NCBI GenBank assembly: GCA_964507665.1
Contig: CAZDPT010000001.1
Coordinates: 33,912-97,911 of the forward strand
From: an uncultured Candidatus Saccharibacteria bacterium
GTDB lineage: Bacteria > Patescibacteriota > Minisyncoccia > Minisyncoccales > CAYZYK01
Length of the DNA: 64,000 nt
Direction: 5' to 3'
A program made the translations under genes and the position numbers. The notes below the pieces were generated by a model. It saw only the letters and a list, made by a program, of their open reading frames with translations. It made no database searches and was not told the origin of the DNA. Positions within the stretch are counted from its first letter, which is position 1; each line of letters opens with the position of its first letter. This document shows positions 1-61,755 of the stretch, piece by piece.

Positions 1-127
1 TTTTTGCTAATTCTGTTATACTAATCTTATTTTCGGACTCAAAGGGCTGGGCAACTAAACTAAAAACGCCTCCGATTATGAGAAAAATCAGGATTATGAA
101 AATAAAGTTTTTAATTAATTTATTCAT
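1..127 (-). CDS. N-terminal fragment of a membrane protein running off the window edge (FtsH-like N-terminus is only a guess)
   Basis: Reverse complement of 1..127 reads MNKLIKNFIFIILIFLIIGGVFSLVAQPFESENKISITELAK with no stop before the window edge. One hydrophobic TM segment follows a short basic N-terminus. Confidence 0.35.
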   Translation of the reverse strand, partial: MNKLIKNFIFIILIFLIIGGVFSLVAQPFESENKISITELAK

Positions 128-235
128 TCTTTCTTAAAACTAATATTAGACGATTATTTTTATCCTCTATGCCTTATACAATAGCAGAAAAATTCTCAGA
201 AATCAACTCTAAATTATAATTAAATTAAAAAGAAA

Positions 236-263
236 AGTCCCCCGCGGGATAGCGCAAGGGACT
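236..263 (-). terminator. intrinsic terminator of the GC-island ORF (hairpin AGTCCC...GGGACT followed by a T-tract on the minus strand)
   Basis: Plus-strand agtccc(236-241) and gggact(258-263) are complementary with a GC-rich interior. The A-run at 227-235 becomes a U-tract 3' of the hairpin on the minus-strand transcript, immediately downstream of the ORF stop at 297. Confidence 0.55.
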
Positions 264-296
264 CGGGATAGACAGGGATTATAGGTTTGTAAGAGG

Positions 297-926
297 TTAG
301 TTGGCGTTCACGACGTTCTCCAGGAAGCTGATAGCTTTCTGGAACGTCCTAAGAATTTTATACGTGCGGTTGCCCTCGACTTTCTCCCAGAAGGCTTTCT
401 TTCTCTGGGCAGCCTTCTGTTTGAGGTCGCTTAGGTAGATGCTCTTCTTTTCGCAGGCAAACTCCAATTCGGCCCAGGCGACGTTAAAGGCCACTTGGTC
501 CAAGATTCGGTATCCCTCCCACACCCGGGGATACATAGCTTTGCACCTTCGCAGAGTTTCCTCGGGTATGGAACTTGCTGCGGTCCTTCGGGCCCACTCC
601 GTCAAGGAATTGGTACCCTCGATCTCCTCGATTTCCTCAAGAGAACCGGAGATGAGAAGTTGTTCTATCTCCTTTCTCTGGTCCTCAAAAGAGCTGTAGC
701 AGGCCCCACAGACGATGTCCTGTATTTTCTGCTTCTCCTCCCCGCAGACCGGACAGGACCGGATTAGCTTTTCGGCCTCGTCCAGGACCGGGTTGAGCTC
801 TTTCTCAACCCATGCGCGAAGATCTTCGCGGCTGGCGCCGTAGCCCAGATTCTGGGGAACCTGGGGGTCTTCCTGTCCGTTTATTTCTTTCACGTAAGGG
901 CTTTGCTGATGGGTGTTGGTACCCAT
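297..926 (-). CDS. hypothetical protein with CxxC-x13-CxxC zinc-ribbon, encoded in a ~55% GC island (foreign composition)
   Basis: 630-nt ORF from the track. GC content and codon usage differ strongly from the rest of the window. Preceded by caaGGAGGaagaatcaaATG (perfect SD) and a consensus promoter. No family recognised. Confidence 0.55.
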   Translation of the reverse strand: MGTNTHQQSPYVKEINGQEDPQVPQNLGYGASREDLRAWVEKELNPVLDEAEKLIRSCPVCGEEKQKIQDIVCGACYSSFEDQRKEIEQLLISGSLEEIEEIEGTNSLTEWARRTAASSIPEETLRRCKAMYPRVWEGYRILDQVAFNVAWAELEFACEKKSIYLSDLKQKAAQRKKAFWEKVEGNRTYKILRTFQKAISFLENVVNAN

Positions 927-1014
927 TTGATTCTTCCTCCTTGAGGTTGGATTGCGTCGAAACTACGCTACTGCAGGTCTATCCCTATCCCTGTCTATAT
1001 TAAGTACTGTCCCT

Positions 1015-1059
1015 ATTATAACGCAAAGTAAAAAACTTGTCAAGGGATGATGACAAGTT
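1015..1059 (-). promoter_or_regulatory. consensus sigma70-like promoter (TTGACA-17nt-TATAAT on minus strand) with the -35 embedded in a palindrome AACTTGTCA-N8-TGACAAGTT (operator-like)
   Basis: Plus-strand attata at 1015-1020 and tgtcaa at 1038-1043, spaced 17 nt. Perfect 9-bp inverted arms at 1034-1042 and 1051-1059. Oriented to drive the 297..926 ORF. Confidence 0.55.
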
Positions 1060-1096
1060 TGGTAAGATTCTATTTATTAAAGAAATGAAAGTAAGA

Positions 1097-2182
1097 TTAT
1101 TCTTCTTTTAATTTTAGGGTTACTCTGTACTCTTTGGGCTCGATTGAGAGAATTTCAAATTTGTATTCTTTCCCTATTTTTAGTTTTTCTTTCATCTTTT
1201 TTTCTGTTCCCAGTTCAGAAATATGGCAGAGCCCTTGAATTTTTGGGGTAATTTGAACAAAAGCCCCAAAAGGATTGAATTTAGTAACTTCTCCTTTAAT
1301 AATATCTCCTTTTTTGTGTTCTTTTTTAAATTCTTTCCAGGGATCTTCTTTTAATCTTTTGAGGGAGAGGAAAACTTGATTATTCTCATCAATTTTAATT
1401 ATCTTAACTTTAATTTTGTCCCCGACTTCAACAACGTCAGATGGATCTTCAATAAGTCGCCAAGCTAACTCTGAAATGTGACAGAGTCCCTCAATTTTAG
1501 GAGTTTTTTTCTTAGTTTTTTTCTGATTGACTGGAAATTTTATAAATGCTCCAAAATCTGCAATTCCGCTTATTTCTCCAGTGACTATGTCTCCTTCTTT
1601 GTATTCTTTTAAAGTCTCTTTTATTTTTTCTTTCTCTTTTGCTTTCTCAGATAGAATTAATTTATTCTCTTTGGGATTAAGATCCAGAATTTTAACTTCT
1701 AAGGTTTCTCCAATGAAGTTCTGCAGTTTTTGTAAGATTTTTTCTCTGTTCCCTTTTTTTACTCTTGGGTAATGCTCGGGAGATAATTGAGACACAGGCA
1801 GAAAAGCTTTTATTCCTTTTACTTTAGCTAAGAGACCTCCTTTATTAGCTCCTAGAATTTCCACTTTTATAATTTCTGCTTTTTCTTTCTTTTCTTTCAG
1901 TTTTTTCCAGGCTATTTCTCTTCTAGCTTTTATTAGAGAAAGTTCCCGGTAACCTTCTTCATTTTCTAAAGCAGTTAGTTTAGCTGAGACTTTATCTCCT
2001 GTCTCAAGATTCTTAAGATAATCTTTTGCGTTTTGGTATTCTCTACCGTAAATTATTCCTGTTCCATAGACTCCCAAATCCACAAAGACAGAGGATTTTC
2101 CCCAGGCAACAATCTCTCCTTTTACAATTGATCCTACTGTTGGAGGCCCTATTAAATTTTTGGTCTTTTTCATATTCTGCAT
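1097..2182 (-). CDS. S1 RNA-binding domain protein with four S1 repeats (30S ribosomal protein S1-like)
   Basis: 361 aa with repeated S1-domain signatures (GDKVSAKL..., two GLCHISEL repeats). Typical reduced S1 architecture. Confidence 0.7.
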   Translation of the reverse strand: MQNMKKTKNLIGPPTVGSIVKGEIVAWGKSSVFVDLGVYGTGIIYGREYQNAKDYLKNLETGDKVSAKLTALENEEGYRELSLIKARREIAWKKLKEKKEKAEIIKVEILGANKGGLLAKVKGIKAFLPVSQLSPEHYPRVKKGNREKILQKLQNFIGETLEVKILDLNPKENKLILSEKAKEKEKIKETLKEYKEGDIVTGEISGIADFGAFIKFPVNQKKTKKKTPKIEGLCHISELAWRLIEDPSDVVEVGDKIKVKIIKIDENNQVFLSLKRLKEDPWKEFKKEHKKGDIIKGEVTKFNPFGAFVQITPKIQGLCHISELGTEKKMKEKLKIGKEYKFEILSIEPKEYRVTLKLKEE

Positions 2183-2352
2183 ATAATAATAGATATTATT
2201 ATACCTTCTTCTTTTTTTTAAATCAAGTCCCTTTTTGCTTAAATCAAATACAGAGAAAAGTTAATTGAATCAGAAGATATAAGGTAAATTTAAGTTGAAT
2301 TTTTAGAGAATTTTTGCTAAAATTACTAAATGAATAAAAACTGAGTCAAATT

Positions 2353-3003
2353 ATGAAAATTACATGGGCAGGTCAATCCTGCTTTAAAATTGTTATTTCC
2401 AAAGGAAGGAAGAAAGTTAAGATAGCAATAGATCCTTTTACTAAAAAGATAGGCCTTTCTCCTCCTTCTTTTTCTGCTGATATTTTACTTATAACTCATG
2501 ATCATAATGATCATAATAATATCAAAACTATAAAAGGCAACCCCTTTTTAATTGAAGGCCCGGGTGAATACGAGATTCAAAAGATATTCATAAAAGGAAT
2601 TTCTTCTTTTCATGACAAAGTGGAGGGCAAAAAGAAAGGTAAGAACACAATATATACTTTAAGGGATGGAGGAATGAAGGTCTGTCATCTCGGTGATTTG
2701 GGGCAGAAACAATTGACAGATTCCCAAATTGAAAAAATAGGAGGAGTAGATATTTTAATGGTTCCAGTGGGTGGAAATTATACTATTTCAGCTAAAGAGG
2801 CCCAAGGTATTATTTCTCAAATTGAACCCAAAATAGTAATTCCTATGCATTATGAGATTCCGAAACTTAAACCAAAACTGGACAGTTTAAAAAAGTTTTT
2901 GAAAGCAATGGGTCAAAACTCAGTCAAGAAAAAGTCTCATTTTTCAATAAAAGAAAAAAACCTACCCACAGAGAAAATGGAAATAATAGCTCTCCGACCT
3001 TAA
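2353..3003 (+). CDS. MBL-fold metal-dependent hydrolase
   Basis: HDHNDH (HxHxDH) metal-binding motif near the N-terminus, 216 aa, later conserved His/Asp. Confidence 0.65.
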   Translation: MKITWAGQSCFKIVISKGRKKVKIAIDPFTKKIGLSPPSFSADILLITHDHNDHNNIKTIKGNPFLIEGPGEYEIQKIFIKGISSFHDKVEGKKKGKNTIYTLRDGGMKVCHLGDLGQKQLTDSQIEKIGGVDILMVPVGGNYTISAKEAQGIISQIEPKIVIPMHYEIPKLKPKLDSLKKFLKAMGQNSVKKKSHFSIKEKNLPTEKMEIIALRP

Positions 3004-3470: not shown

Positions 3471-6400
3471 ATGGCAAAATCTTCAAAAACTAAAACAAAA
3501 GAAATAGGTGAAGTAAAAGAGAGAAAAATAACAGAAGAGATGAAAGAGAGTTATATTGACTATGCTATGTCAGTTATTATTTCCAGAGCCTTGCCTGATG
3601 TCAGAGATGGTTTGAAGCCAGTTCACCGCAGAATTCTATATGCAATGTATGAGGATAGACTACTTCATAATGCCAGTTTCAGAAAATCAGCTACTGTAGT
3701 GGGGGCTTGCCTGAGTCGATATCATCCTCATGGAGATGTAGCTGTTTATAATTCTTTAGCAAGAATGACCCAAGATTTTTCTCTAAGATATCCGTTGACT
3801 TCCGGACAGGGAAATTGGGGTTCAATTGATGACCCTTCAGAATTTGCTGCAATGAGATATTGTATTACTGGTGATTCAATGATTGTTACCGACAGATGCT
3901 TAGAAAAAGTTGGGGAAGTTTCGGATAAAGAAGATATCTCTTTAAAGGTTTTATCTATGGGGAAAAAGGTGAATCAGGCATCAAAATGGTTTGATTCTGG
4001 AATTCACCCTGTTTTACAAATTAAAACTCATCGTGGTTATTCTTTGAGGGGGACATTTAATCATCCAATATTAACTTTGGTTCAGAACCAGGAGACAGGT
4101 AAACCAAACTTTAAATGGAAACTATTGGAAAACATTGAGAAAGGTGATTTTGCTGTTATTGATAGAAGTGACACTTTCTGGCCAGAAAAAGAACCTAGTT
4201 TAAAAAAATATTTTCCTGAAAGAGAAAGAAAAGACCGTGCTTTTGTTTATAACTTACCTTCTAAAATGAACCAGGACTTAGCTTTCTTAATGGGGGCTAT
4301 AACGGCTGAGGGCTATATTTCTATAGGAAAGAAGAGCGGAGCTCATAAGATAGGTTTTTGTAACACCGACAAGGAATTTCTTGATGGGTTTAGAAAAAGA
4401 TTTAAGAATCTATTTCCAAATTGTAAGATTTATGAACAAAAAAGAGACTCCTTAAGTTATGGTAAGAAAGAATTTGTCTCCTTTGAAATATGTTCTAAAT
4501 ATCTTGTTGAATTTTTGAAAAATTTAGGCCTTCAAGAAGTTCTTTCTGATAAAAAAAGAGTCCCTGAAATAATATTTCATTCTAGTAAGAAATCTGTAGC
4601 AGAGTTTCTAAAAGGATATTTTGAGGGGGACGGGGGGGTTTATCAAAACGTTGATTCTGGCTGGATAGAAGCCTCCTCTGCTAGTGGAGATTTATTTGAA
4701 GAGATACAAAATATTTTATTAAGGTTTGGTATAGTTTGTTCGGTGGTATATAACCAAAAAAGGAAAGAGTTTAAATTACTTATTAGAGGTTATAATAATC
4801 TGGGCCAGTTTAGAGAAAAGATTAATTTTCTTTCAAAAAGGAACAAAAATAAACTTAAAAAGTTTTCTCGCATTTATTCGGGAACCGCAATATCCAAAAC
4901 AGATTATATTCCCTTTCTTTCCCGGTATATAAGAAAAAAATATAAAAAGAAGGAAATAAATCCCGAGGATAAAAAATATCTTCGAACTCACAACCTTGAC
5001 AGATATTCCAAATTAAAGAAATATTTTCCTTATTTAAAAAAGATACTAGATAAGTCCGATATTGAACTTATTGAGAACTTTCTCGAAAATCATTATCTGT
5101 TTGATTCTATTGTCTCTATTAAGAAGAAATCAAAAGAGAGAGTGTATTCTTTAAGGATAGATAGTTCTTGCCATTCTTTTGTTTCTAACGGTTTTATTAG
5201 CCATAATACTGAAACAAAACTTTCAAAAATTGGAGAAGAAATGTTAAGAGACATTAAAAAAGACACAGTTGATTTTGAAGACAATTACGATGGGACCAGA
5301 CAAGAGCCAGTTGTTTTACCTTCTCCTGTCCCTCAACTTTTATTAAATGGAGCTTTGGGTATTGCAGTTGGTATGGCCACAAAGATTCCTCCTCATAATC
5401 TTTCTGAGGTTTGTGATGCTTGTTGTTTTCTTATTGAAAATCCAGAAGCTGAAACCTCTGATTTGTTTAAATTTATTAAAGGACCTGATTTTCCAACCGG
5501 TGGTATGATTTTTGATAAAAAGGAGATTATTTCTGCTTATTCTCAAGGCAAAGGTAAGATTGTGATGAGAGCCAAAACTAACATAGAAAAAAAGAAAGGG
5601 GGGGGAGCTAAAATTATAATTACAGAAATTCCCTATCAAGTTCAAAAAACCAGTTTAATTTCTAAGATGGCTAAGTTAGTTTCTGATAAGAAGATTAAAG
5701 GGATAAAAGATATTAAAGATTTATCAGATAGAGAAGGCATGAGAATTGAAGTAACAGCAAAAAAAGGTTCAAATCCTCGCAGAATTCTGAACAGACTCTA
5801 TAAATTTACCAATCTTCAGAAGAATTTCTATTTGAATATGTTAGCTATCGTTGATGGAATTCAGCCCAAAATTCTTTCTTTGACTGATGTTCTTTCTTAT
5901 TTCATTGCTCACAGAAAAGAGGTTGTGAAAAGAAGGACTAAATTTGAATTAGAGAAAGCAAAAGACAGAGCTCATATTCTTGAAGGGTTGAGTGTAGCTT
6001 TGAAAAATATTGATGATGTTATAGCAACAATTAAGAAATCAGCTAACCGTGATAAAGCTAAGAAAAACTTGAAGAAAAAGTTTGAATTAAGTAACAAGCA
6101 AGCAGAAGCAATATTACAGATGCGTCTTCAAGCCTTAGCTAAACTTGAAAGAGAAAAGATAGAAAAAGAATTCAAGGAATTAAAAAAGAAAATTAAGAAA
6201 TTAAAGGCAATTTTGAAAAGCAAAAAGAAGATTAAAGAAATTGTTAAAAAAGAATTAAAAGAAGTAAAAGAAAAATATGGGGATAAAAGAAAAACTAAAG
6301 TCAAAAAAGGTAAAATCAAAAGGATAAAAGAAGCAGATCTAGTTCCTTTACGGGAAACAATTATTACCCTGACAAAAGGAGGGTATGTTAAAAGAATTAA

Positions 6401-7319
6401 ACCAGGCACTTATAAGATTCAGAGAAGAGGCGGTAAAGGAATTATTGGTATGAAAACAAGGAAAAAGGATATTGTTGAACATTTTGTTTCTGCGTCAACA
6501 CATGATAAACTTCTCTTTTTTACAGACTCTGGAAAGGTTTTTCAAACTAAAGTTTACGAAATTCCAAAGGCAAAAAGAGTGGCCCGAGGTAGAGGCTTAG
6601 TTAACTTTTTAGATCTCTCCACAGAAGAGAATGTTTTATCTTTAATTCCCTTAAAGAAACAAGAAGAGAAGGGGATTAAGTATTTGGTTATGGTTACAAA
6701 AAATGGTAAAATAAAGAAAACAAGTTTAGATAAGTTCCAAAACGTAAGAAGAACTGGAATTCGAGCTATAAAGTTGAGAAAGGGAGATTTAGTAAGAGGT
6801 GTTATAAAAACTACTGGAAAAGACCAAATAATCCTGATTACCAAGAAAGGGAAATCAATAAGATTTAAAGAACAACAAGTAAGATCTATGGGTAGAGCAA
6901 CTTATGGAGTAAAAGGTATTAAACTTAAGAAAGGAGATGAGATAATTGGAATAGATGTTATCCATTCAGCAGACAAGAAGAAATCCAAGAAAAAAGAAAA
7001 GAAAAGCAAAAAAGGAAAGAAAACAGTATTGGTGGTTACAGAATCAGGTTATGGTAAAAGAACTCCTCTCTCGAAGTATAGAACTCAGAAGAGGGGAGGA
7101 GTAGGAATAAAGACAGCTAATATAAATAAGAAAACGGGCCAGATTGTAATTGGAAAAGTTCTAAGTTCTGAAGAAAAGGATCTAATTGTAATTTCAAGAA
7201 AAGGACAAGTGATAAGAGTTAAGATTGATTCTATTTCTATCCACAACAGAGCAACTCAGGGAGTTAGAATTATGAGGCTGAAAGAAGGAGATAAAGTAGC
7301 TTCTGGTACCTGTATTTAA
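3471..7319 (+). CDS. gyrA: DNA gyrase subunit A, interrupted in-frame by a 449-aa intein (precursor 1282 aa, mature about 833 aa)
   Basis: N-terminal GyrA signatures ([32 protein letters not shown], catalytic AAMRY). After the intein the GyrA sequence resumes (TETKL..., [23 protein letters not shown]). C-terminal beta-pinwheel repeats carry a K-rich insertion. Confidence 0.92.
3861..5207 (+). mobile_element. intein with LAGLIDADG homing-endonuclease domain at the gyrA-a site (immediately after the active-site Tyr)
   Basis: Starts with Cys ([11 protein letters not shown], block A) right after AAMRY. Block B is TFNHPILT. Two LAGLIDADG motifs ([15 protein letters not shown] and [14 protein letters not shown]). 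Ends ...SNGFISHN, with Thr as the first C-extein residue. 1347 nt, in frame. Confidence 0.88.
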
Positions 7320-7342
7320 AAAAACATTATATTTAACAATTT

Positions 7343-7855
7343 ATGTTCGATCCAGAAGAAGTTTTAAACAATTTGGATTTGAGAAGCAATATGACAGCTG
7401 CTGAATTTGGATGTGGCGGGGGAGGTTTCGCTATCCCCCTGGCTAAAAGACTAAAACAAGGAAAAGTTTATGGTTTGGATATTCAAGAAGAAAAGTTATC
7501 TGCCTTAAAGAATAAAGCAACTTTGGAGAATATTTCTAATATACAGACTATTGTTTGTGATTTAGAAAAAGAAAAAGGTTCCACCTTAAAGGGTGGATCT
7601 TTAGATTTAGTTTTGATTCCAAATGTTTTATTTCAAGCAGAGGATAAAACTGCTATAATAAAGGAAGCTAAAAGAGTTTTAAAAGAAGCTGGGGAAATTC
7701 TTGTGGTGGATTGGAAAAAAGAATCCTCTTTGGGACCAAAACAGGGAAGGGTTTCAAAAGAGGAAGTTCAGAAAATTACAAAAGAAATAGGGCTTAAATT
7801 AAAAAAAGAGTTTTCTCCAGGTGACTATCATTATGGTTTGGTATTTAGAAAATAG
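7343..7855 (+). CDS. class I SAM-dependent methyltransferase
   Basis: Motif I AEFGCGGGGFAIPLA (GxGxG), acidic residue after beta-2 (YGLDIQ), 170 aa. Confidence 0.65.
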   Translation: MFDPEEVLNNLDLRSNMTAAEFGCGGGGFAIPLAKRLKQGKVYGLDIQEEKLSALKNKATLENISNIQTIVCDLEKEKGSTLKGGSLDLVLIPNVLFQAEDKTAIIKEAKRVLKEAGEILVVDWKKESSLGPKQGRVSKEEVQKITKEIGLKLKKEFSPGDYHYGLVFRK

Positions 7856-7866
7856 TTGATATAAAT

Positions 7867-8220
7867 ATGTTAATAAAAAAATCTTTTGTTCTCTTAATAT
7901 TGTTTTTGATCTTGCTGCTCTCTTCAAGCTTTGCGAAGGCAGTTATGATTGATAATCCTCTACAGGCTGAAAGTTTTTCAGATCTTATCAAGGCAATTGC
8001 GGAAATAATTTCAAGTATTGTTGGTGTTTTGGCTGTTTTAATGTTGATAATTGCGGGAATCTATTTTGTTACAGCAGCAGGTGATCCAAATCAAATCTCT
8101 AAAGCTAAAACCATGGTAAAATATGCTATAATAGGAGTTATTATCGCTACTTTAGCTGGGGCTATAGGGAGTGTAATTGAAGAAAAGTTATTAACAAAAG
8201 GCTTGTTGATAATTTTTTAA
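7867..8220 (+). CDS. small secreted/bitopic protein, paralog 1 of 9 (VirB2/T4SS-pilin-like architecture)
   Basis: Signal peptide (..SSSFAKA), variable segment, TM1 ending AGIYFVTAAGDPNQISKAKT, TM2 glycine/alanine-rich. Most divergent member of the array. Confidence 0.55.
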   Translation: MLIKKSFVLLILFLILLLSSSFAKAVMIDNPLQAESFSDLIKAIAEIISSIVGVLAVLMLIIAGIYFVTAAGDPNQISKAKTMVKYAIIGVIIATLAGAIGSVIEEKLLTKGLLIIF

Positions 8221-11387: not shown

Positions 11388-11714
11388 ATGAATAAAATTT
11401 TATTAAATCTCAGTCTTACTATTCTTATCGTCAGCATTTTAGTTTTACCTTTTGAAGTTATCGCAGCAGGAGATAGTGGTATAACTGAGATTAAAAATAA
11501 AATTAAAGAATTAGGAAAACTAGCCTGGACTATTTTAGTTTCTTTAGCAGTAGTAATGTTTGTATATGCTGGAATTTTATTTCTGATATCTTCGGGATCT
11601 CCAGATAAACTCGGAAAAGCAAAAAAAACGTTTATTTGGGGAATTGCTGGGCTGATACTGGGTCTCTTAGCATTTTGGCTAGTAGAAATTATTTCAGGAA
11701 AGGCTGCTTGGTGA
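11388..11714 (+). CDS. small secreted/bitopic protein, paralog 9
   Basis: Signal peptide (EVIAAGD), core MFVYAGILFLISSGSPDKLGKAKKTFIWGIAGLILGLLAF. Confidence 0.6.
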   Translation: MNKILLNLSLTILIVSILVLPFEVIAAGDSGITEIKNKIKELGKLAWTILVSLAVVMFVYAGILFLISSGSPDKLGKAKKTFIWGIAGLILGLLAFWLVEIISGKAAW

Positions 11715-11732
11715 AATAATTGAAGATTACAG

Positions 11733-11814
11733 GGGCGAGTGGCGGAATTGGAAGACGCGTACGGTTTAGGACCGTATCCTGAAAAGGTTGGGGGTTCGAG
11801 TCCCTCCTCGCCCA
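11733..11814 (+). tRNA. tRNA-Leu (anticodon TAG), type II with long variable arm
   Basis: Manual fold: acceptor GGGCGAG/CTCGCCC, anticodon stem TACGG/CCGTA, loop TTTAGGA, T-loop TTCGAGT, discriminator A, no encoded CCA. Confidence 0.8.
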
Positions 11815-11824
11815 TACAAAAATT

Positions 11825-11852
11825 AAAACTCCAGTAAGTTTACTGGAGTTTT
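11825..11852. terminator. bidirectional intrinsic terminator (12-bp stem aaaactccagta/tactggagtttt, loop agtt) between tRNA-Leu and convergent hsp20
   Basis: Perfect hairpin flanked by an A-run upstream and a T-run downstream. Confidence 0.7.
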
Positions 11853-11873
11853 GTAGTTGAAAGACTTTATCTT

Positions 11874-12290
11874 TTATTTCAGATCTATTTCTTTTTTTTC
11901 GTCTTTTTGGAGTTTTGGCATTTTTATTTTAAGAATTCCATTTTCCATTGAAGCATCAATTTGGGAAGTATTTACATTTTGGGGGACAATTATTTTGCGA
12001 GAGAAGGGTCCCCAATAACATTCTTTGTAAAAATAATTTTTATCTTCAGTATCCACAGGATTTTCACGATCCCCTTTTATTAAAAGCATATCTTTTTCAA
12101 CGGAAATATCAATATCTTCTCTTGAAACTCCACCTGTGGCTGCCATTACAATAAAGTCTGTTTTTGTTTCATAGACATCAACTGCTAATTTCCCTTCTGT
12201 TTGAAGTATTCCTCTTTTTTTATTCTCTTTCTTTTTCTTTTTCGAACTGGATTTTTTTTGTTTGATTTTAATTTTTTTTGAAAAAAGCAT
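11874..12290 (-). CDS. small heat-shock protein, Hsp20/alpha-crystallin family
   Basis: Alpha-crystallin domain (VDVYETKTDFIVMAATGGVSREDIDISVEKDMLLIKG ... GILKIKMPK). K-rich N-terminal extension. Confidence 0.75.
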   Translation of the reverse strand: MLFSKKIKIKQKKSSSKKKKKENKKRGILQTEGKLAVDVYETKTDFIVMAATGGVSREDIDISVEKDMLLIKGDRENPVDTEDKNYFYKECYWGPFSRKIIVPQNVNTSQIDASMENGILKIKMPKLQKDEKKEIDLK

Positions 12291-12346
12291 AATTTTTATT
12301 ATCTAAACACAGATTTTTATAGACTTTATTTATTTTGTAATCTAAA

Positions 12347-13066
12347 TTATTTAATTTTACAAATACTTTTTATTTTTTTGAGTTTCTTGAATCCACGAGA
12401 AACAAATAGAGCAAGAAAAATTAAGATAATGCTAGGAATAAGAATTTTAAGTGGTCCTTCTATTTCTATTATAGAAAAATTATAGAGACCGTGCAAAAGG
12501 ACAGCTATTGTTAATCCTGAGAATAAAAAAGTTTTTCTTTGTTTTAAAAAAGAAAGAGCTAAAAAATATCCTATTGTTCCCGAACATAAAGCGTGGAGAA
12601 ATGTTGCTGAGATAAAACGAAAGAGAGCAAGCCCTGTACTGGCTAGTAAATTAGGATAAATACTTAAGAAAATAAAGATATTTTCTAAAGTAGCAAATCC
12701 CAGAGCAGCAATTATCATATAAAGGATAACATCTACTGGTTCATCAAGTTGGGGATGTTTTAATACTCCCCATTTTACTGTTAAGTATTTTAATATTTCT
12801 TCGGTGAAGCCAACTATTATAAACCAATCAAAAATGAGGATAAAAAGGGTTAATAAATCAGATTTTATTATTTCCAAAAGAGAAACTAATTGACTTTCAA
12901 CTATTATCTCTATTAAAACCGCCACAATAGCTGCTAGCATACCATAGAAAAATATTTTCAAAATCATCTTGTTGGATTCAGGATGGACATCTTTTCTCAA
13001 GTAGAACAAAAGCCAGACCAAACTAGGTAAAAAACCGAGTAAAATAAAAGAGATGATTAGAAGCAT
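12347..13066 (-). CDS. polytopic intramembrane metalloprotease, PrsW/CPBP-like
   Basis: Multiple TM helices with the ordered motifs EExxK (GFTEEILKY), FxxxH (FLHALCSG) and HxxxN (HGLYNF). Confidence 0.55.
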   Translation of the reverse strand: MLLIISFILLGFLPSLVWLLFYLRKDVHPESNKMILKIFFYGMLAAIVAVLIEIIVESQLVSLLEIIKSDLLTLFILIFDWFIIVGFTEEILKYLTVKWGVLKHPQLDEPVDVILYMIIAALGFATLENIFIFLSIYPNLLASTGLALFRFISATFLHALCSGTIGYFLALSFLKQRKTFLFSGLTIAVLLHGLYNFSIIEIEGPLKILIPSIILIFLALFVSRGFKKLKKIKSICKIK

Positions 13067-15337: not shown

Positions 15338-16492
15338 TTACCTTATTCTCAAATTCGATTCAGCTTTTATTTTTTGCCAGGGAGTTTTATTTTCTTTGTG
15401 AAAAAATCCCGTGACCGCTGTCATTACTGCATTATCTCCTGAATATTTAATATTCGGAATTAATAATTTTGTTTCCGGAATATCTTTTTTTATTTTTTGT
15501 TTAAATTGTTTTCTTAATCCTTTATTGGCTGTAACACCACCACCCAAAAAAATACTTTTTGTTCTGTAATTTTTTGCTGCTCTGATTGTTTTTTTAATTA
15601 AAACATCAATTATTGCCTGCTGGATTTCTTTTGCTGCTTCTGTTATATATTGTTTTGATTTTCTTTGTTTTTGTTTTCTTTTTTTGAAATCATACAAGAC
15701 AGCAGTTTTTAATCCAGAGAAACTAAAATCATAATTTTTACTGTTAATCATTGGTCTCGGCAATTTTATATCAAATTCTACTTTCTTGTTCCATTGTTTT
15801 GCTTTCTTTTCAATAGCTGGTCCTCCAGGATAAGGAAGACCTAAAATCCTTGCTGTTTTATCAAAACATTCACCTGCTGCATCATCTCTTGTTTCACCGA
15901 TTATCTTGTAATTCCCGATCTCTTTCATTAGAATTAATTGAGTATGTCCTCCACTGACTACAAGAGAAATCGCAGGAAATAATTCTTTTTTTACCTTCTC
16001 TTCAATAAAATTTGAGAGAATATGGGATTCAATATGATTTACCGAGACAACAGGCAAATTCCAAGTAAGTGATAAAACTCTAGTAAAATTAATTCCTACC
16101 CAGAGACAGGGATCAAGTCCAGGACCCTGGGTTATTGCAATTAAGTTAATTTTTGGTTTTTTGTAGGTTTTTAAAAACTTTTCCAGATTATCAAAAAGAT
16201 ATTTTTCTCTTTTTAGAATCTGTTTAATTTTCTTTTCTTTTAATTTTCTTTTGTTTTTTAATTTAGAAAGAAGTTTTGCTTTTTTTAATGATTTTTCAAG
16301 AACCGGAATTAAGTTTTTTTGATGCTCTCTTTTAGCTAAAGTAGGATAGACTCCACCGTATTTTTTGTGAATTTTAACTTGTGAGGAAATGATGTTTGAT
16401 AAAACTTTAAAATGACCCCTTTTGTTTTTGGGGGTTTCAATTATAGTAACACAGGTATCATCACAAGAGGTTTCAATGCCTAAAATTTTCAT
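15338..16492 (-). CDS. tsaD: tRNA N6-adenosine threonylcarbamoyltransferase TsaD (Kae1/YgjD family) with a K-rich insertion
   Basis: N-terminal ILGIETSCDDT signature, actin-like fold motifs (GGV.AN). The track ORF begins at a TTG at 16516; the ATG at 16492 (MKILGIETSCDD) is the more plausible start. Confidence 0.8.
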   Translation of the reverse strand: MKILGIETSCDDTCVTIIETPKNKRGHFKVLSNIISSQVKIHKKYGGVYPTLAKREHQKNLIPVLEKSLKKAKLLSKLKNKRKLKEKKIKQILKREKYLFDNLEKFLKTYKKPKINLIAITQGPGLDPCLWVGINFTRVLSLTWNLPVVSVNHIESHILSNFIEEKVKKELFPAISLVVSGGHTQLILMKEIGNYKIIGETRDDAAGECFDKTARILGLPYPGGPAIEKKAKQWNKKVEFDIKLPRPMINSKNYDFSFSGLKTAVLYDFKKRKQKQRKSKQYITEAAKEIQQAIIDVLIKKTIRAAKNYRTKSIFLGGGVTANKGLRKQFKQKIKKDIPETKLLIPNIKYSGDNAVMTAVTGFFHKENKTPWQKIKAESNLRIR

Positions 16493-16571
16493 AAATCCGA
16501 AAAGAGTAAAAAACAAGTAATATTTATATTACTTGAGAAATTGATTTTTTTCAATTTTTAAGTTAAGATTA

Positions 16572-16643
16572 AGATATTGTTGGCCCTATCGTCTAACGGA
16601 AAGGACACTTGATTTTCAATCAAGCAATAGGGGTTCGATTCCC
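16572..16643 (+). tRNA. tRNA-Glu (anticodon TTC)
   Basis: Manual fold: acceptor GGCCCTA/TGGGGCC, D-arm TCGTCTAACGG..GAC, anticodon stem CTTGA/TCAAG, loop TTTTCAA, T-arm AGGGG TTCGATT CCCCT. Close match to canonical bacterial tRNA-Glu. Confidence 0.8.
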
Positions 16644-16654
16644 CTTGGGGCCAC

Positions 16655-17343
16655 ATGAATCCCAGAAACAAAAGTAAATACAAAAAGGCATTTAACTTAC
16701 GAGTTAAAGGAAAAAGTTATGGAGAAATAAAAGAAGCTTTAGGAATTCCCAAAAGCACGCTTAGTAGTTGGTTTAAGAACCTGAAATTGCCTAAATCCGC
16801 TCAAAAAATCCTTAAGAAGAAAGACAAAAAAGGTAGAAAAAATTATTAGAATTTAATAAAAAACGTAGTCAGAGAATCCGCCTTGAGAACCAAAGAATAA
16901 GAAAAAATGCTGCTAATAAAATCAAATCTTTTTCAAAATATGAACTGTTGTTGATCGGAAGTGCTCTCTATTGGGCAGAAGGATATAAAAAACAACAAAA
17001 CACAAACTCGCCTTGTATCTGCTTTGCGAACTCTGATCCAGCAATGATTCTTTTATTTCTTCGCTTTCTTCGCGAAATTATTGAAGTTCCCGAAAAAAGA
17101 ATAAGGTTATCAATTCAAATACATCCAAATCTTGACAAAAAATCTATTGTCAATTTTTGGGCGAGCATCACTGATATTTCTCAAGAACGGATTAGAACCA
17201 AGAGATGTAAGAGTCGGGCGAGCAAGGGAAAACGTCCTAAAAACACCCTTCCCTATGGGACAGCAGATGTAAGAGTTAGTAAGCGTCAATATTTTTTCAA
17301 GATTAGGGGATGGATTGATGGGATTAAAAAATTCAATACTTGA
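16655..17343 (+). pseudogene. split or frameshifted ORF pair: 64-aa basic HTH protein (16655..16849) and 131-aa ORF (16948..17343, TTG start) with a degenerate LAGLIDADG-like motif; possibly a decayed free-standing homing endonuclease
   Basis: The first ORF has an HTH (SYGEIKEALGIPKSTLSSWF). The second, in a different frame, carries LIGSALYWAEGYK (compare GFFEAEGSF variants of LAGLIDADG) followed by the hydrophobic pattern typical of that fold. Located directly 3' of tRNA-Glu. Confidence 0.3.
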
Positions 17344-17369: not shown

Positions 17370-18929
17370 ATGCCCAAAAAATATTTAGAAATAGCCCATG
17401 CTTCAGATTTCAAAGATTTAAGAAGAAGAAAGATTTATCGTTTCTTTGAAATGATTCCGGGAGTCTTAAGTTTGGGAACTCTTATCGGAGTTCTCTTTTT
17501 TTCTTGGATTTTACCTTCTTTTGTGGCAATTTTTATAATTCTTTTTTGTCTCTTTTATCTTTGTAAAATCTGTTATCTTTCAATTCATCAGATAATTACT
17601 TATATTAAGATGAAAAAGAATCTAAGAATTGACTGGCTAAGTAAACTTAAAAAATTAAAAACTAAGAACTGGGAAAACATTTATCATTTAATAGTTTTAC
17701 CAACTTACAAAGAAAAAAAGAAAATTATTAAGGACAGTTTGAACGCTTTGGTAAAATCAGATTATCCAAAAGAAAAGATGATAGTAGTTTTGGGAGTTGA
17801 AGAGAGGGCAGGCAAACAAGCTTTGCGAGGAGCTGAAGAGATAGAAAAAAAATACAAGAACAAATTTTATAAGTTTTCAATTACGGTTCACCCAAAAGAC
17901 ATTCCTGGCGAGGTAGCAGGAAAAGGTTCTAATGAAAGATGGGCAGTAAAAAAAGCCCATCAGAAGATAATTGATAAAGAAAAAATTCCCCATAAAGACA
18001 TTGTTGTTTCTAGTTTTGATATTGATACCAAAGTTTACCCAAAATACTTTTCTTGTTTGACATATCATTTTTTGACGACAAAAAACCCCCATAAAACAAG
18101 TTATCAACCCATCCCAGTTTATAATAACAATATTTGGCAAGTACCTGCTTTCAGTAGAGTAGTAGCAACTTCTAACACTTTCTGGCAGATGGTTCAACAA
18201 GGAAGGCCAGAAAAACTCGTTACTTATTCTTCTCACTCAATGCCCTTTCGGGTCTTTGAAGAAGTAGGATATCCTAATAATATGGTCTCTGATGATTCAA
18301 GGATTTTTTGGAAATCATATCTTCATTATAATGGAGATTATAAGGCTCTGCCCTTATATTATCCTGTTTCAATGGATGCTGTTTTAACCGATTCTCTTTT
18401 AAAAACAATAATCAATCAATACAAGCAACAAAGAAGGTGGGCTTGGGGATGTGAGGAGATTCCTTATTTGATATATGGCTTTTTGAGAAATAAAAAAATA
18501 TCTTTCTGGAATAAATTAAAACATCTTCTTGCTGTAATTGATGGTTTTTGGTCCTGGGCAACCTCTACCCTTTTAATTTTTATTCTAGGATGGTTGCCTT
18601 TAATTTTAGGAGGAGAACGATTTAGCACAAGTTTACTCTCCTATAATCTTCCCAGGTTAACTGGAAGAATTATGACTTTTGCTATGATTGGAATGGTTGT
18701 TTCTGCTATCTTAAGTATGCTTCTTTTGCCTTCCCGGCCTCAAGGAATTAAAAGAACAAAATATATCTCTTTATTTTTACAATGGCTTCTTTTACCTATT
18801 ACTTTAATATTTTTTGGGTCTTTTCCAGCTCTGGATGCTCAAATTCATTTAATGATTGGTAAGTATATGGGTTTTTGGGTTACCGAGAAATCTCGCTATC
18901 CCAGAAGCAGAAAACAACCAGAAGAATGA
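17370..18929 (+). CDS. membrane-embedded processive family-2 glycosyltransferase (cellulose/chitin-synthase-like)
   Basis: N- and C-terminal TM helices flank a GT-A domain. Contains DxD-like SFDIDTK and the Q(Q/R)xRW motif QQRRWAWG diagnostic of processive GT2 enzymes. Confidence 0.75.
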   Translation: MPKKYLEIAHASDFKDLRRRKIYRFFEMIPGVLSLGTLIGVLFFSWILPSFVAIFIILFCLFYLCKICYLSIHQIITYIKMKKNLRIDWLSKLKKLKTKNWENIYHLIVLPTYKEKKKIIKDSLNALVKSDYPKEKMIVVLGVEERAGKQALRGAEEIEKKYKNKFYKFSITVHPKDIPGEVAGKGSNERWAVKKAHQKIIDKEKIPHKDIVVSSFDIDTKVYPKYFSCLTYHFLTTKNPHKTSYQPIPVYNNNIWQVPAFSRVVATSNTFWQMVQQGRPEKLVTYSSHSMPFRVFEEVGYPNNMVSDDSRIFWKSYLHYNGDYKALPLYYPVSMDAVLTDSLLKTIINQYKQQRRWAWGCEEIPYLIYGFLRNKKISFWNKLKHLLAVIDGFWSWATSTLLIFILGWLPLILGGERFSTSLLSYNLPRLTGRIMTFAMIGMVVSAILSMLLLPSRPQGIKRTKYISLFLQWLLLPITLIFFGSFPALDAQIHLMIGKYMGFWVTEKSRYPRSRKQPEE

Positions 18930-18963
18930 AAAAGCAGTTAGTCCAGAAACTCAAGAAAGAAGA

Positions 18964-19027
18964 TTTATTCAAAATGAATCCTTTTTTCAAATTGTTTTAC
19001 CCTTTGTTTAAGAGCAGGGTATTTTTT
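18964..19027. repeat. direct repeat A: relic copy of the recG 3' end (last 20 codons plus stop; 2 aa substitutions if translated on minus strand)
   Basis: About 88% identical to 19886..19950. The reverse complement reads KKYPALKQRVKQFEKRIHFE-stop versus the authentic RecG C-terminus KKYPALKKRVKQFEKKIHFE. Confidence 0.8.
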
Positions 19028-19053
19028 TAGTTTTTTGGATAGAGCGGATTTAT

Positions 19054-19107
19054 TTGACAACAAAGTTAACCTATGTTAGCTTACTAAACAAAGGTTAACT
19101 TAGGTTA
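19054..19107 (+). promoter_or_regulatory. promoter/operator of the HTH-doc module: TTGACA followed by two direct repeats GTTAACCTATGTTA / GTTAACTTAGGTTA (each containing GTTAAC)
   Basis: TTGACA at 19054-19059. 14-bp repeats at 19065-19078 and 19094-19107. ATG at 19118. Confidence 0.45.
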
Positions 19108-29966: not shown

Positions 29967-31691
29967 ATGGAAGGTTTAATAAAACAACTATATAAGGAGG
30001 GAGTAATAGATAAATCCAAAAGAAAAAGTTTAGGATTAGAGAAAAAAAGAACAGGAAAAAAAGAAGAACAAATAATCTTAGAAAAAAAAGTTGTTCCGGA
30101 AGATTTTTTATTTAAATTAAAAAGTAAACTATTAAAGATTTCCTTAAGAGATATTGTTCCCGAGGAGATACCATTAGAAGTTTTGGAATTAATTCCGGAA
30201 AGTTCTGCTTTAAGTTACAAAATGATACCCTTATCTAAAAAAGATAGTACAGTGGAGATAGGAATGGTTTATCCTGAAGATGCTCGTCCCAAAGAAGCTT
30301 TAAGGTTTATTGCCAGACAAGGAAAGTTTGACTACAAGATTTATTTAATCACTCTAACTGATTTTCAAGATCTTATCGGGCAATACAGAACCTTAAAAAG
30401 AGAAACGAAGAGAGCCCTGGAGGCTATGGAAGAGGAAGAAATCAGCATTCCATCTCCTGAGAGAAAACTCCCGGAAACTGAAAAGATAACTGAAGAAACC
30501 CCAATTGTTAAGATGGTTTCTGTGATTATAAAACATGCTGTTGAAGGTAAGGCTTCTGATATTCATATTGAACCTACAGCAGAAAAAGTAAAAGTCCGTT
30601 TTCGATTAGATGGAATTTTGTATTCTAGTTTGTTTTTACCCAGAAGAGTTCATTCAGCAATCGTAGCTAGGATTAAAGTTTTAGCTAAACTAAAAATTGA
30701 TGAAACAAGAATTCCTCAAGATGGTAGGTTCACTACCGAAGTTAAAGATAAAAAAATTGATTTTAGGGTCTCTACTTTCCCAACCATTTTAGGGGAGAAG
30801 GTAGTAATAAGGGTACTTGATCCTACTGAGGGACTGAAATCTTATAAAGAGATAGGTTTGGAGAAAAGGAATCTTGAGTTGGTTGAAAAAGCAGCAAAAG
30901 ACCCATTTGGATTGATTTTGGCAACAGGTCCTACCGGTTGTGGAAAAACTACTACCCTTTATTCTCTTTTACGCCTTTTAAATAAAGAGAAAGTAAATAT
31001 TGTAACCATTGAGGACCCAGTAGAATATTCTATTGAGGGAGTTAATCAGTCTCAGGTTAAACCAGAGATAAATTATACTTTTGCCAGAGGCTTGCGTCAT
31101 GTTTTAAGACAAGACCCCGATGTTATTATGGTAGGGGAAATTAGAGATGAGGAAACAGCCCAGTTAGTAATACACGCTGCCTTAACAGGGCATGTGGTGT
31201 TTTCAACCTTACACACTAACAATGCTGTAGGAGTTATTCCCAGGTTAGTTGATATGGGAATAAGATCATTTTTACTTCCCCATAGTCTGAATATTGCTAT
31301 TTCTCAAAGATTAGTAAGATCTCTCTGTCCTGATTGTAAAAAGAAAGTAAGAGCTGATAAAGAAACAAAAGAATATATTCTAGATCAGATTGATAAATTC
31401 CCCCCAGAAGTAAAAAAGAAAGTAAAAATTCCTAAAACACTTTATATCTATGAACCCCAGGGATGTGAGAAATGTAATTTTAAAGGTTACATCGGAAGAA
31501 TAGGTGTGTTTGAGGTTTTTAAAATGACAGATAAAATGGCTGATTTAATCTCAGAGGGAATAAACACAGATAAAATTCGCAAAGAAGCTTATCGTCAAGG
31601 TATGATTACTATGGCTCAAGATGGAGTCTTAAAGGTCTTGGATGGTGAAACTACTGTAGAGGAAGTGCTAAGATTAGTTCAAACTAGGTAA
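29967..31691 (+). CDS. pilB: type IV pilus assembly ATPase PilB (GspE family)
   Basis: Walker A GPTGCGKTT, Asp box, His box, tetracysteine CPDC...CEKC, N-terminal GspII-like domain. 574 aa. Confidence 0.88.
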   Translation: MEGLIKQLYKEGVIDKSKRKSLGLEKKRTGKKEEQIILEKKVVPEDFLFKLKSKLLKISLRDIVPEEIPLEVLELIPESSALSYKMIPLSKKDSTVEIGMVYPEDARPKEALRFIARQGKFDYKIYLITLTDFQDLIGQYRTLKRETKRALEAMEEEEISIPSPERKLPETEKITEETPIVKMVSVIIKHAVEGKASDIHIEPTAEKVKVRFRLDGILYSSLFLPRRVHSAIVARIKVLAKLKIDETRIPQDGRFTTEVKDKKIDFRVSTFPTILGEKVVIRVLDPTEGLKSYKEIGLEKRNLELVEKAAKDPFGLILATGPTGCGKTTTLYSLLRLLNKEKVNIVTIEDPVEYSIEGVNQSQVKPEINYTFARGLRHVLRQDPDVIMVGEIRDEETAQLVIHAALTGHVVFSTLHTNNAVGVIPRLVDMGIRSFLLPHSLNIAISQRLVRSLCPDCKKKVRADKETKEYILDQIDKFPPEVKKKVKIPKTLYIYEPQGCEKCNFKGYIGRIGVFEVFKMTDKMADLISEGINTDKIRKEAYRQGMITMAQDGVLKVLDGETTVEEVLRLVQTR

Positions 31692-36582: not shown

Positions 36583-37122
36583 ATGTCTCATTACAGTATT
36601 AATTTTCAAAAAGGTTTTACTTTAACTGAAGTTATAATGGCTATTTCTGTTTTAATGATTGGAGTTGTCGGTGTTTATATTGTTTTCGGAAGTGCTGTTT
36701 CTTCCCTGCCCTATATTTCTTCCAGAATAACTGCTGCTTATTTAGCCCAGGAAGGAGTTGAAATAATAAGAAATATTAGGGATTCAAATTGGATTGAAAA
36801 TGAAAATAAATCCAGTGTTACTGTTGCCTGGGATGATGGTTTAAATGAAGGAGAATGGCAGGCTGATTATAATGATAATCAGCTAAGGGAATGTTTCTCT
36901 CCATGTAGTTATAATTCTGACAATCTTTTTTTTCTTAGAACAGAAGATAACAAATTCTACAATTATGATTTAGGAGATAATACTCCTTATAAAAGAAAAA
37001 TTATTATTGAAAAAGACCCCAGTCAACCAGATATGTTGAAAGTTAAAGTAATAGTTCAGTGGAAGATAAAAGGAAAACTTCAAGAAATTAAAGCAGAGGA
37101 TCATTTATATAATTGGTATTAA
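36583..37122 (+). CDS. minor pilin (PilV-like) with prepilin N-terminus
   Basis: FQKG|FTLTEVIMAISVLMIGVVGV. Confidence 0.7.
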   Translation: MSHYSINFQKGFTLTEVIMAISVLMIGVVGVYIVFGSAVSSLPYISSRITAAYLAQEGVEIIRNIRDSNWIENENKSSVTVAWDDGLNEGEWQADYNDNQLRECFSPCSYNSDNLFFLRTEDNKFYNYDLGDNTPYKRKIIIEKDPSQPDMLKVKVIVQWKIKGKLQEIKAEDHLYNWY

Positions 37123-41005: not shown

Positions 41006-41164
41006 AATTTTTGTCTACCTTTTCATCTTGAAGAATTAGGGATATAGAAAATTTATGATAAAATGATATTAAGTAAATTTCATATAAAACTTAGAAATAA
41101 ATTATTTTATTGAAATTAATATTTTATCAAAAGGTCAGATAAATTTTTAAAATTACTTATTTTC

Positions 41165-41590: not shown

Positions 41591-41661
41591 GTTGAATAAT
41601 ATTAAAACTATAATAAAAAGAACTAAAGGTCGTAAAAAAACAATATTGTTAAGTTGAATTC

Positions 41662-61693: not shown

Positions 61694-61717
61694 TAATTTT
61701 TATAATTTAATAAAGCA

Positions 61718-61743
61718 AAGGTGGTTCTCGGGGAACCACCTTT
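61718..61743. terminator. bidirectional terminator hairpin aaaggtggttc tcgg ggaaccaccttt
   Basis: Perfect 11-bp inverted repeat between convergent genes. Confidence 0.65.
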
Positions 61744-61755
61744 GTGATATATTAT

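Follow-up and report, generated by a model that had tools for sequence, protein, structure and literature searches.

Pairing between the two ends of a bacterial mRNA has been shown experimentally, as far as we found, for few messages, among them hbs and the mRNAs of type I toxins. In the hbs mRNA of B. subtilis, 14 nt of the 5' untranslated region (UTR) pair with a sequence located just upstream of the terminator; this pairing was proven by compensatory mutants and restricts cleavage by RNase Y (Braun, Durand & Condon 2017, PMC5737220). In the hok mRNA of plasmid R1 and in the aapA/IsoA mRNAs of Helicobacter, a long-distance interaction that joins the 5' end to the 3' end encloses the open reading frame (ORF) in a compact and very stable fold (PMC6733600). 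GC-rich islands in AT-rich genomes are, in addition, a proven predictor of structured RNAs (PMC6429828). Here, we analyse a GC-rich island on the minus strand of a 64,000-nucleotide stretch (the window) from an uncultured Candidatus Saccharibacteria bacterium (assembly GCA_964507665.1, contig CAZDPT010000001.1, positions 33,912 to 97,911). An original prediction had described this island as a self-contained expression cassette of suspected foreign origin. We lean, with slightly better than even confidence, towards a different reading: the island would be a resident, clade-specific gene whose GC-rich, compact message is closed by an hbs-like helix between its 5' and 3' UTRs, probably serving stability and high expression.

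This reading starts from a pair of inverted repeats. A perfect 12-mer, ATAGACAGGGAT, is present at 268-279 on the plus strand and again at 987-998 on the minus strand; the right copy had been placed correctly before, and the left copy, given as 267-278, is shifted by one nucleotide. With one mismatch allowed, the 12-mer has four matches in the window against 0.33 expected. The right copy is the core of a purine-rich 5' box, AUAGACAGGGAUAGGGAUAGAC (977..1000, minus strand), at a distance of about 10 nt from where the transcript is predicted to begin. The left copy is the core of a 3' box, AUCCCUGUCUAU (265..285, minus strand), which lies 17 nt past the stop codon and is separated by 3 nt from the terminator hairpin. 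The boxes flank the coding sequence (CDS) inside the predicted transcript, in keeping with the earlier proposal that the repeats occupy the 5' and 3' UTRs. Of the window's 59 ORFs, none has 5' and 3' flanks as complementary as those of this gene, which is by far the strongest outlier. The next-best candidate for a second clamped gene (36583-37122) was rejected as an AT-rich chance match within a pilin-like operon.

The significance of the boxes became apparent from related loci, which are few. A single-sequence search of 5.8 billion proteins returned the query protein itself as its sole match, and an exhaustive phmmer search gave one true weak relative and two repeat-protein artefacts. Relatives were reached via the closest homologues of the neighbouring S1 protein, by inspecting the spacer between the S1 gene and ftsH on their contigs. 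Each of these spacers harbors a small GC-rich ORF, and two of them align to the query, sharing the zinc ribbon and W, LW..GN[RK], and LE motifs. A profile built from the aligned ORFs retrieved ten clusters among the 5.8 billion proteins, all of them metagenomic and none with a Pfam domain; every cluster with a readable contig is located between an S1 gene and ftsH. A metagenome scan contributed three further loci, among them a sixth lineage, L011. The order S1 gene, GC-enriched gene, and ftsH is thereby found in 15 other related contigs (L001 and L004-L017; L002 and L003 duplicate the window and L001 loci), which derive from independent projects, 14 of them from JGI and ENA. The upstream S1 gene is seen in every related locus that reaches it (L001, L004-L009, and L012-L013); the upstream ORF of L014-L016 is without assignment, and the contigs of L010, L011, and L017 end short of the upstream neighbour. 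No relative was found in a scan of viral contigs, and L001 was the sole match in a genome collection of 185,579 species. None of the relatives examined has an empty S1-ftsH site, the 64-kb window and the 10-kb loci contain no second copy of the cassette, and no direct repeat or target-site duplication was found to flank the unit. As stated in the original prediction, no transposase is present, and there is no recombinase gene among the neighbours. As judged from these searches, the family is confined to a Parcubacteria/Staskawiczbacteria-like clade of the candidate phyla radiation (CPR), always between the S1 gene and ftsH.

In every locus, a box in the 5' UTR, about 10 nt past the predicted start, is complementary to a second box, which follows the stop codon at a distance of a few to about 20 nt, and the terminator hairpin stands almost directly 3' of this post-stop box. 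The box sequences, however, are unrelated between the six lineages. The closing helix is AUAGACAGGGAU in the window, GGGGAGGAGGGAAGAGG in L004, AGAAUAAGGAAAGG in L006, L010, and L016, GCCAAAUAGGG in the L007-like group, GGAUAGCGGAAAAGGA in L011, and CGCUGCGGGG in L005, where the clamp pair is CGCUGCGGGG/CCCCGCAGCG. Because complementarity and position are kept while the sequence changes, the boxes point to a selected helix and not to a terminal repeat recognised by a protein. A comparison of L015 with L006 further reveals a compensatory change from A-U to G-C in the helix. When the 5' UTRs and 3' UTRs were combined in a 6x6 duplex matrix, the cognate pair was the best in all rows and columns (-25.6 to -33.9 kcal/mol), and the cognate sum was reached by 1 of 720 permutations. 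Against shuffled 3' UTRs, the observed energy was reached by 0-6 of 500 controls in eight of the nine loci, and by 30 of 500 in L004. The closing helix is present in the minimum free energy (MFE) structure of all six transcripts folded, and it has a probability above 0.8 over 11-20 nt in the ensembles of 11 transcripts. Pairing of the Shine-Dalgarno (SD) sequence to the 3' region does not exceed a probability of 0.08 in these 11 transcripts; it is 0.01 in the window transcript, where the SD is mostly unpaired. The 5' box is purine-rich in five of the six lineages. Taken across the sequences compared, the complementarity of the boxes is shown to covary, and the 12-nt inverted repeats most likely pair both ends of the gene's own mRNA.

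The composition of the island is equally distinctive. The GC content of the island is 52-54%, within a window of 33% GC (33.1% over its whole length). The contrast noted originally is thus real: 200-nt windows between 301 and 1000 have 51-58% GC, compared with about 25-40% nearby. The segment 364-963 is the highest-GC 600 nt of the 64 kb (0.54), the runner-up stretch reaching 0.44 and the tRNA cluster of the window 0.43. The GC content of the island matches that of the window's tRNAs. Thermophily was considered as a source of the high GC content and is unlikely, because the GC content of the tRNAs is 46-60%. The CDS (297..926) has 53.5% GC, and the GC content at its third codon positions (GC3) is 0.68. 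GC3 amounts to 0.64-0.68 in the window gene, L004, L006, and L010, compared with 0.23-0.36 in adjoining genes, and to 0.38-0.46 in the L007-L009 gene, compared with 0.21-0.32 in adjoining genes. Since the syntenic gene is raised in GC3 across loci, the anomaly is a stable property and not the mark of a recent arrival. Elsewhere in the window, a GC bump of 0.41-0.44 at 39116-42384 (plus strand) encodes Cys/Gly/Thr-rich secreted repeat proteins of 629 and 240 aa; it is due to amino-acid content and is unrelated to the GC-rich island.

The transcripts of the family fold with excess stability. Relative to dinucleotide shuffles, the whole-transcript z score is -7.0 in the window, -5.0 in L004, -4.7 in L006, -4.6 in L010, -5.7 in L016, -6.6 in L011, -3.1 in L015, -10.1 in L007, -10.0 in L008, and -14.8 in L005, compared with -0.7 to +1.2 for host segments of like length; the clamp and the terminator account for part of these scores. 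The CDS of the window gene alone has a z of -4.4 against dinucleotide as well as synonymous-codon shuffles, which were calibrated on 14 host genes (-2.3 to +2.1 and -2.6 to +1.7, respectively). CDS-only scores range from -6.4 to -12.9 in L007, L008, and the L005 ORF, which holds the extreme value of -12.9; they are moderate in L004 and L016, as in the window gene, and borderline in L006 and L010. Per nt, all members have a folding energy 1.1-2.5 times as high as host genes, and the window gene one about 1.5-2.3 times as high, this higher absolute energy being a consequence of GC content. CDS hairpins are conserved within the L007-like group, in some cases with double changes; one hairpin, at an unchanged position, is built from different sequence in L007 than in L008, and amino-acid changes were the price. 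The unit has no match in Rfam 15: a search of 1-3000 at E<=10 gave three chance-level matches outside the unit, and in the whole window the gathering threshold was reached by tRNAs only. The structural-RNA homology that, according to the original prediction, would make the ORF spurious was thus absent even at this permissive setting. In other parts of the window, the lowest 300-nt folding scores (z -4.3 to -6.0) belong to 16401-16700, 61601-61900, 60401-60700, 18801-19100, and 31001-31300; the first of these overlaps a tRNA-Glu gene, and the other four could be terminators or small structured RNAs.

A protein is nevertheless what the island encodes. The CDS (297..926, minus strand; called as an ORF and conserved in the family) specifies 209 aa, as had been recognised, with an N-terminal extension, a zinc ribbon (C58, C61, C73, and C76), and a helical bundle; the cysteine motif is CxxC-x11-CxxC, and not the x13 form reported earlier. 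The four cysteines and about 20 further columns of the family alignment are conserved at 22-27% overall identity, and the conserved motifs include CPxCG...CxxCY, W, and LW..GN[RK], with LE shared by the aligned homologues. An AlphaFold2 (AF2) model based on a 10-sequence alignment (pLDDT 82, pTM 0.73) places a zinc knuckle ahead of a helical bundle. Among close alleles of the relatives, dN/dS is 0.25-0.67, which together with the conserved cysteines demonstrates that the ORF is truly coding; the GC-rich island is a real protein-coding gene. The zinc ribbon can be lost: compared with L016 (482-1069), L006 (6241-6744) carries an exact 72-nt in-frame deletion that removes it entirely. The products measure 160-227 aa and are predicted to be soluble helical proteins. 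No hydrophobic stretch or N-terminal signal-like segment is visible in the sequences, to which no predictor was applied, and the product appears to be cytoplasmic. As first supposed, no recognisable family emerged from Pfam, PHROGs, NCBIfam, PADLOC, a PDB sequence search, or Foldseek against PDB and BFVD. The top zinc-ribbon match in Pfam scored 13 bits against a cut-off of 27, and PADLOC LmuB, NCBIfam SMC, and PHROGs gave weak coiled-coil matches only. The best E value was 0.004 in a PDB profile search, with no single matched stretch passing alone, and 0.1 (PDB) and 0.26 (BFVD) with Foldseek. By the measure of these databases, this zinc-ribbon and helical protein family, limited to one CPR clade, is previously undescribed.

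The CDS is also hypervariable and mosaic. In L008-like contigs from five samples, the S1 gene, ftsH, and both UTRs are 98-100% identical, whereas the CDS is 81-92% identical. Synonymous divergence in the CDS is 0.16-0.23 between L008 and the other alleles and 0.05-0.16 among the rest, compared with 0.014-0.038 in the S1 gene, and is thus raised about 10-fold. One allele, L013, corresponds to L012/L009 in its first third and to L008/L014 in a later block. A diversity-generating retroelement was rejected as the source of this variation because no template copy exists: the window and the 10-kb loci contain no template repeat. The substitutions are not A-specific (AG 31, CT 13, and transversions 18), and variation spans the whole CDS and includes indels; reverse transcriptase context was searched within the window and the fetched loci, not in whole genomes. 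The diversity of the CDS is presumably kept by recombination, and balancing selection is possibly involved.

Exchange is suggested as well by a tract of about 1.5 kb that is 100% identical between the window genome (window 1-973; L002:7350-8868) and L001 (9950-11470 of this locus; CAYZYK010000001.1), whereas its flanks are 70-80% identical and the genomes otherwise about 78%. The tract begins just inside the 5' box, at 973 in the 5' UTR, and extends over the ORF, terminator, and spacer into ftsH, of which it covers about 680 nt (in L002). Up to position 974, L001 and the window have diverged but orthologous promoters and 5'-UTR starts, and the cassette therefore predates the identical tract. 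The tract may reflect recent homologous exchange or be a co-assembly artefact. An independent Logan assembly of SRR7048227 covers 8.3 kb over both junctions at 100% identity. Horizontal acquisition in the sense of an inserted element is not supported by this analysis, but the idea is partly vindicated in another form: the identical tract and the mosaic alleles suggest lateral exchange of the locus through homologous recombination, both among related genomes and within them. Co-conversion with an intein was rejected as a cause of the tract, which stops about 80 nt before the intein site of L001 ftsH, with synonymous differences in between. This intein (1.38 kb, 11551-12933) follows ...FVGVGA in L001 ftsH, and the ftsH gene of the window genome (L002:8187-10085) lacks it. 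The infB gene of L001 also has an intein. The gyrA gene of the window (3471-7319, plus strand) contains an intein with a LAGLIDADG-type domain in its 1282-aa product, and the L001 orthologue is intein-free (823 aa), so that intein presence differs gene by gene between the two genomes. Beside the gyrA operon of L001, about nine tandem small genes (L001:847-4536) with matches to type IV secretion system (T4SS) pilins (PF18895/TrbC) form an array of repeated, diverged paralogues, whose counterpart region in the window lies beyond gyrA, at about 7.9-12 kb.

The remaining anatomy is that of a compact transcription unit, and the original description of it stands in most respects. The left border of the slot is the S1 gene (1097..2182, minus strand), which encodes a four-domain, rpsA-like S1 RNA-binding protein, as read from the ORF and from PF00575 matches in homologous loci. 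A palindrome, AAACTTGTCA-N8-TGACAAGTTT, followed by TTTT, occupies 1033..1060 (minus strand), with arms of 10 nt each at 1033-1042 and 1051-1060, separated by 8 nt. The -35 hexamer of the promoter does lie inside this palindrome, as had been seen. With 10 pairs and a T run, the palindrome scores as terminator-like, and the same hairpin and T run overlap TTGACA in L001, L004, and the L007-like group; the palindrome is missing from L006 and L005, which instead have a separate terminator after the upstream gene. An economical reading is that the palindrome would be the intrinsic terminator of the S1 gene, its 3' arm carrying the -35 of the next promoter; an operator role is conceivable too. The sigma-70-type promoter TTGACA-17-TATAAT (1043..1015, minus strand) is confirmed as a 12/12 match to the consensus, the sole perfect one in 1-2400, and TTGACA with a consensus or near-consensus -10 is kept in all lineages. 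Transcription is predicted to start near 1008. The SD AGGAGG, read from the sequence, is where it had been reported (936..941, minus strand), at 9 nt, and not 7 nt, before the ATG (926..924). The anticipated terminator is likewise found by a terminator scan (226..264, minus strand), with a 12-pair GC-rich hairpin (264..235) followed by a U tract, and wherever the contig of a locus extends far enough, a corresponding hairpin stands directly after the 3' box. Downstream of it, a putative ftsH promoter-like element (176..206, minus strand), TTGATT-N17-TATTGT with a TG-extended -10 (TTGATTT-N16-TGnTATTGT), is conserved in L004 and L005. The ftsH gene, at the right border, starts with the ATG 127..125 and leaves the window (1..127, minus strand). 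This layout supports the view of a monocistronic unit, as first proposed, in which transcription runs from a consensus promoter to the gene's own terminator and includes no other gene. No conserved antisense promoter was identified, the promoter scan giving a weak AT-rich match alone. GGGAUAG occurs twice in the 5' UTR (977-1014, minus strand) and CUAUCCC twice at the 3' end, in the clamp and in the terminator loop (246-252 and 265-271, plus strand); this duplication permits an alternative register in which the 5' UTR would invade the terminator. The 3' UTR of L011 has a similarly duplicated UAUCCUAUAA.

How might such an arrangement work? In the mechanism that we propose, the purine-rich box near the mRNA's 5' end would pair with the box just past the stop codon, before the terminator. 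Since the 3' box directly precedes the terminator hairpin, the whole SD and ORF would be closed into a loop. By analogy with hbs, clamp, terminator, and GC-rich compact body would then most likely shield the transcript from 5'-end-dependent and endonucleolytic decay, while the SD would stay free, yielding a long-lived and strongly expressed message. The GC enrichment would accordingly reflect selection on the RNA and not foreign ancestry. Stabilisation of the mRNA by the helix and the cause of the high GC content are both inferred. Several points weigh against this proposal. The transcript ends of all members are predictions. By MFE, neither the sense nor the antisense strand folds clearly better, so that thermodynamics cannot separate RNA pairing from a DNA inverted repeat; the strand of the pairing rests on the anatomy of the transcription unit and on the consistently purine-rich 5' box, and its action is presumably at the RNA level. 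Excess structure in the CDS is uneven, L011 and L015 resembling host genes, and at the 300-nt scale the window cassette is no outlier (z -1.4 to -2.1). The stabilisation model leaves unexplained the hypervariability of the CDS and also the raised GC3 where structure is not in excess, and GC-rich codons could hinder translation in a genome of 33% GC. Furthermore, all sequences are metagenome assemblies, and some of the mosaicism could be assembly-made because L001 comes from a co-assembly ('binchicken').

Other readings of the helix and of the GC content have to be weighed against this stabilising clamp. Two of them also act through the RNA, and we consider both quite unlikely. In a lock of the hok/aapA kind, the helix would keep the full-length mRNA stable but inert until 3' trimming or refolding, and the product would then have to be harmful or tightly rationed. 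The ORF-enclosing interaction and the compact fold are hallmarks of the hok and aapA mRNAs (PMC6733600), and the CU-rich tracts that immediately follow the stop codon, CCUCUU in the window and CCUCC in the L009 and L012-L014 alleles, can pair with the SD when the two strands are calculated as a duplex. In full-length ensembles, however, the SD is mostly open, its pairing with the 3' region staying at or below 0.08; L006 and L011 lack the anti-SD tract, there is no sign of an antisense RNA gene, and the product is a soluble helical protein of 160-227 aa and not a small hydrophobic peptide. The island could alternatively be a large, structured, stem-closed RNA, resembling an rRNA precursor, that also carries an ORF and has a dual function. 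Its GC content, equal to that of the window's tRNAs, would fit the use of GC islands to predict structured RNAs (PMC6429828), as would the transcript z scores of -10 to -15 in L007, L008, and L005, the architecture shared by the unrelated L005 ORF, and the L007/L008 hairpin rebuilt at the expense of the protein. This dual-function RNA is nevertheless without an Rfam match and without a conserved primary-sequence core or loop motif across lineages, L011 and L015 have no significant excess of internal structure, and the coding signal (dN/dS below 1, conserved cysteines, and consensus SD) is clear.

The remaining alternatives act at the level of DNA. The repeats could be recombination sites of an invertible or exchangeable cassette, as in an inverton-like switch or a cassette swap, which would explain why the diversity stops at the boxes. 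The hypervariable segment is indeed bracketed by conserved boxes, the L001 tract starts just inside the 5' box, L005 has an unrelated ORF of 424 aa in the same frame, and both strands fold equally. We judge this reading to be slightly less likely than the two preceding ones: recombinase sites are normally conserved, whereas the boxes are wholly different between lineages and the repeats have just 10-17 nt; a single orientation is shared by all 17 loci (the window, L001, and L004-L017), with no recombinase gene nearby; the L001 tract runs about 680 nt into ftsH, as in ordinary homologous recombination; and a purine-rich 5' box in five of six lineages is a strand asymmetry unexpected of a symmetric DNA site. 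Recent arrival from a GC-rich donor, as a foreign gene or a mobile cassette resembling a miniature inverted-repeat transposable element (MITE), was favoured by the original prediction, and the sharp contrast in GC3 (0.68 against about 0.25) and a fully identical tract in genomes 78% identical would suit it. It is very improbable in the light of the GC-enriched homologues that fill this S1-ftsH position in 15 other contigs: the ten clusters found among 5.8 billion proteins are, where examinable, all in this slot and clade, viral contigs gave no match and the 185,579-species collection only L001, and the L001 promoter and 5' UTR, diverged up to 974, are older than the identical tract. Nor do the repeats behave as the ends of a MITE-like element, since they differ between lineages while remaining complementary, and further copies of the 12-bp-bounded unit, for which the original prediction had suggested looking, were not found in the window or the 10-kb loci, any more than a target-site duplication or an empty site. 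Finally, an assembly chimera or contamination, also raised at the outset, gains what plausibility it has from the metagenomic nature of all the data and the co-assembly behind L001; it is extremely improbable, as the Logan assembly of SRR7048227 spans both junctions (8.3 kb, 100% identity) and 14 further contigs from the independent JGI and ENA projects have the same architecture.

The L005 locus raises a broader possibility. Its S1-ftsH slot holds an NYN-like gene (6139-6684, z +1.1) followed by a 50% GC ORF of 424 aa (6867-8141) that has no detectable similarity to the zinc-ribbon family. This ORF has the same type of promoter, clamp boxes, and terminator, and its transcript is the most structured of all (z -14.8). 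Because an unrelated ORF shares the architecture, the idea that the frame itself is the conserved entity is kept open. The S1-ftsH slot might then hold a so far undescribed kind of replaceable expression module, in which a fixed promoter, covarying clamp boxes, and a terminator would surround GC-rich, hairpin-dense, hypervariable ORFs, even unrelated ones, swapped among strains and species by recombination. We regard this as an unlikely but tenable extension. If true, RNA structure and protein would be selected together, and the module could be an arms-race locus, with a part in interaction with the host or in defence against phages, or a role could belong to the folded RNA itself.

A GC anomaly that resembles horizontal transfer here marks a vertically syntenic gene and is more likely tied to the RNA than to foreign ancestry. 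For scans of AT-rich genomes, the lesson is that GC islands need be neither non-coding RNA nor foreign DNA. The locus provides covariation support, in at least six lineages, for a bacterial mRNA with clamped ends. It also presents a tiny, uncharacterised CPR protein family that combines maximal expression signals with extreme strain-level diversity, a combination typical of conflict or interaction genes.

Set beside the systems described so far, the locus most closely recalls hbs. Both messages are monocistronic, with a strong SD left accessible, and they share the geometry of the 5'/3'-UTR pairing. To the roughly 14 nt of contiguous complementarity before the hbs terminator corresponds here a perfect 12-nt core, 3 nt before the hairpin, with counterparts in all related loci; selection on the pairing is indicated by the six lineage-specific boxes, the permutation result (1/720), and the change in L015. 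The product, however, is a zinc-ribbon and helical protein instead of HU, the transcript is GC-enriched, the CDS is hypervariable, and the pairing is here predicted from sequence; unlike in hbs, complementarity is conserved by covariation in at least six lineages. Type I toxin mRNAs such as hok and aapA likewise pair their ends, enclose the ORF, and adopt a compact, very stable fold, but their interaction sequesters the SD and needs 3' trimming, whereas the SD is predicted to be free here, no antisense antitoxin is evident, and a small membrane peptide is not what the gene encodes. With the processing stems of 16S and 23S rRNA and with GC-rich structured RNAs, the locus shares the GC island, the long-range flanking stem, and folding beyond that of shuffled sequences; it differs in having an ORF under purifying selection and in matching no Rfam family. 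Lastly, hypervariable loci encoding pilins, capsules, or restriction specificity resemble it in their one-gene peak of diversity between near-identical flanks, their mosaic alleles, and the occurrence of the same allele in divergent backgrounds. In contrast to such loci, the product here appears to be cytoplasmic, dN/dS is below 1, and synonymous divergence is also elevated about 10-fold.

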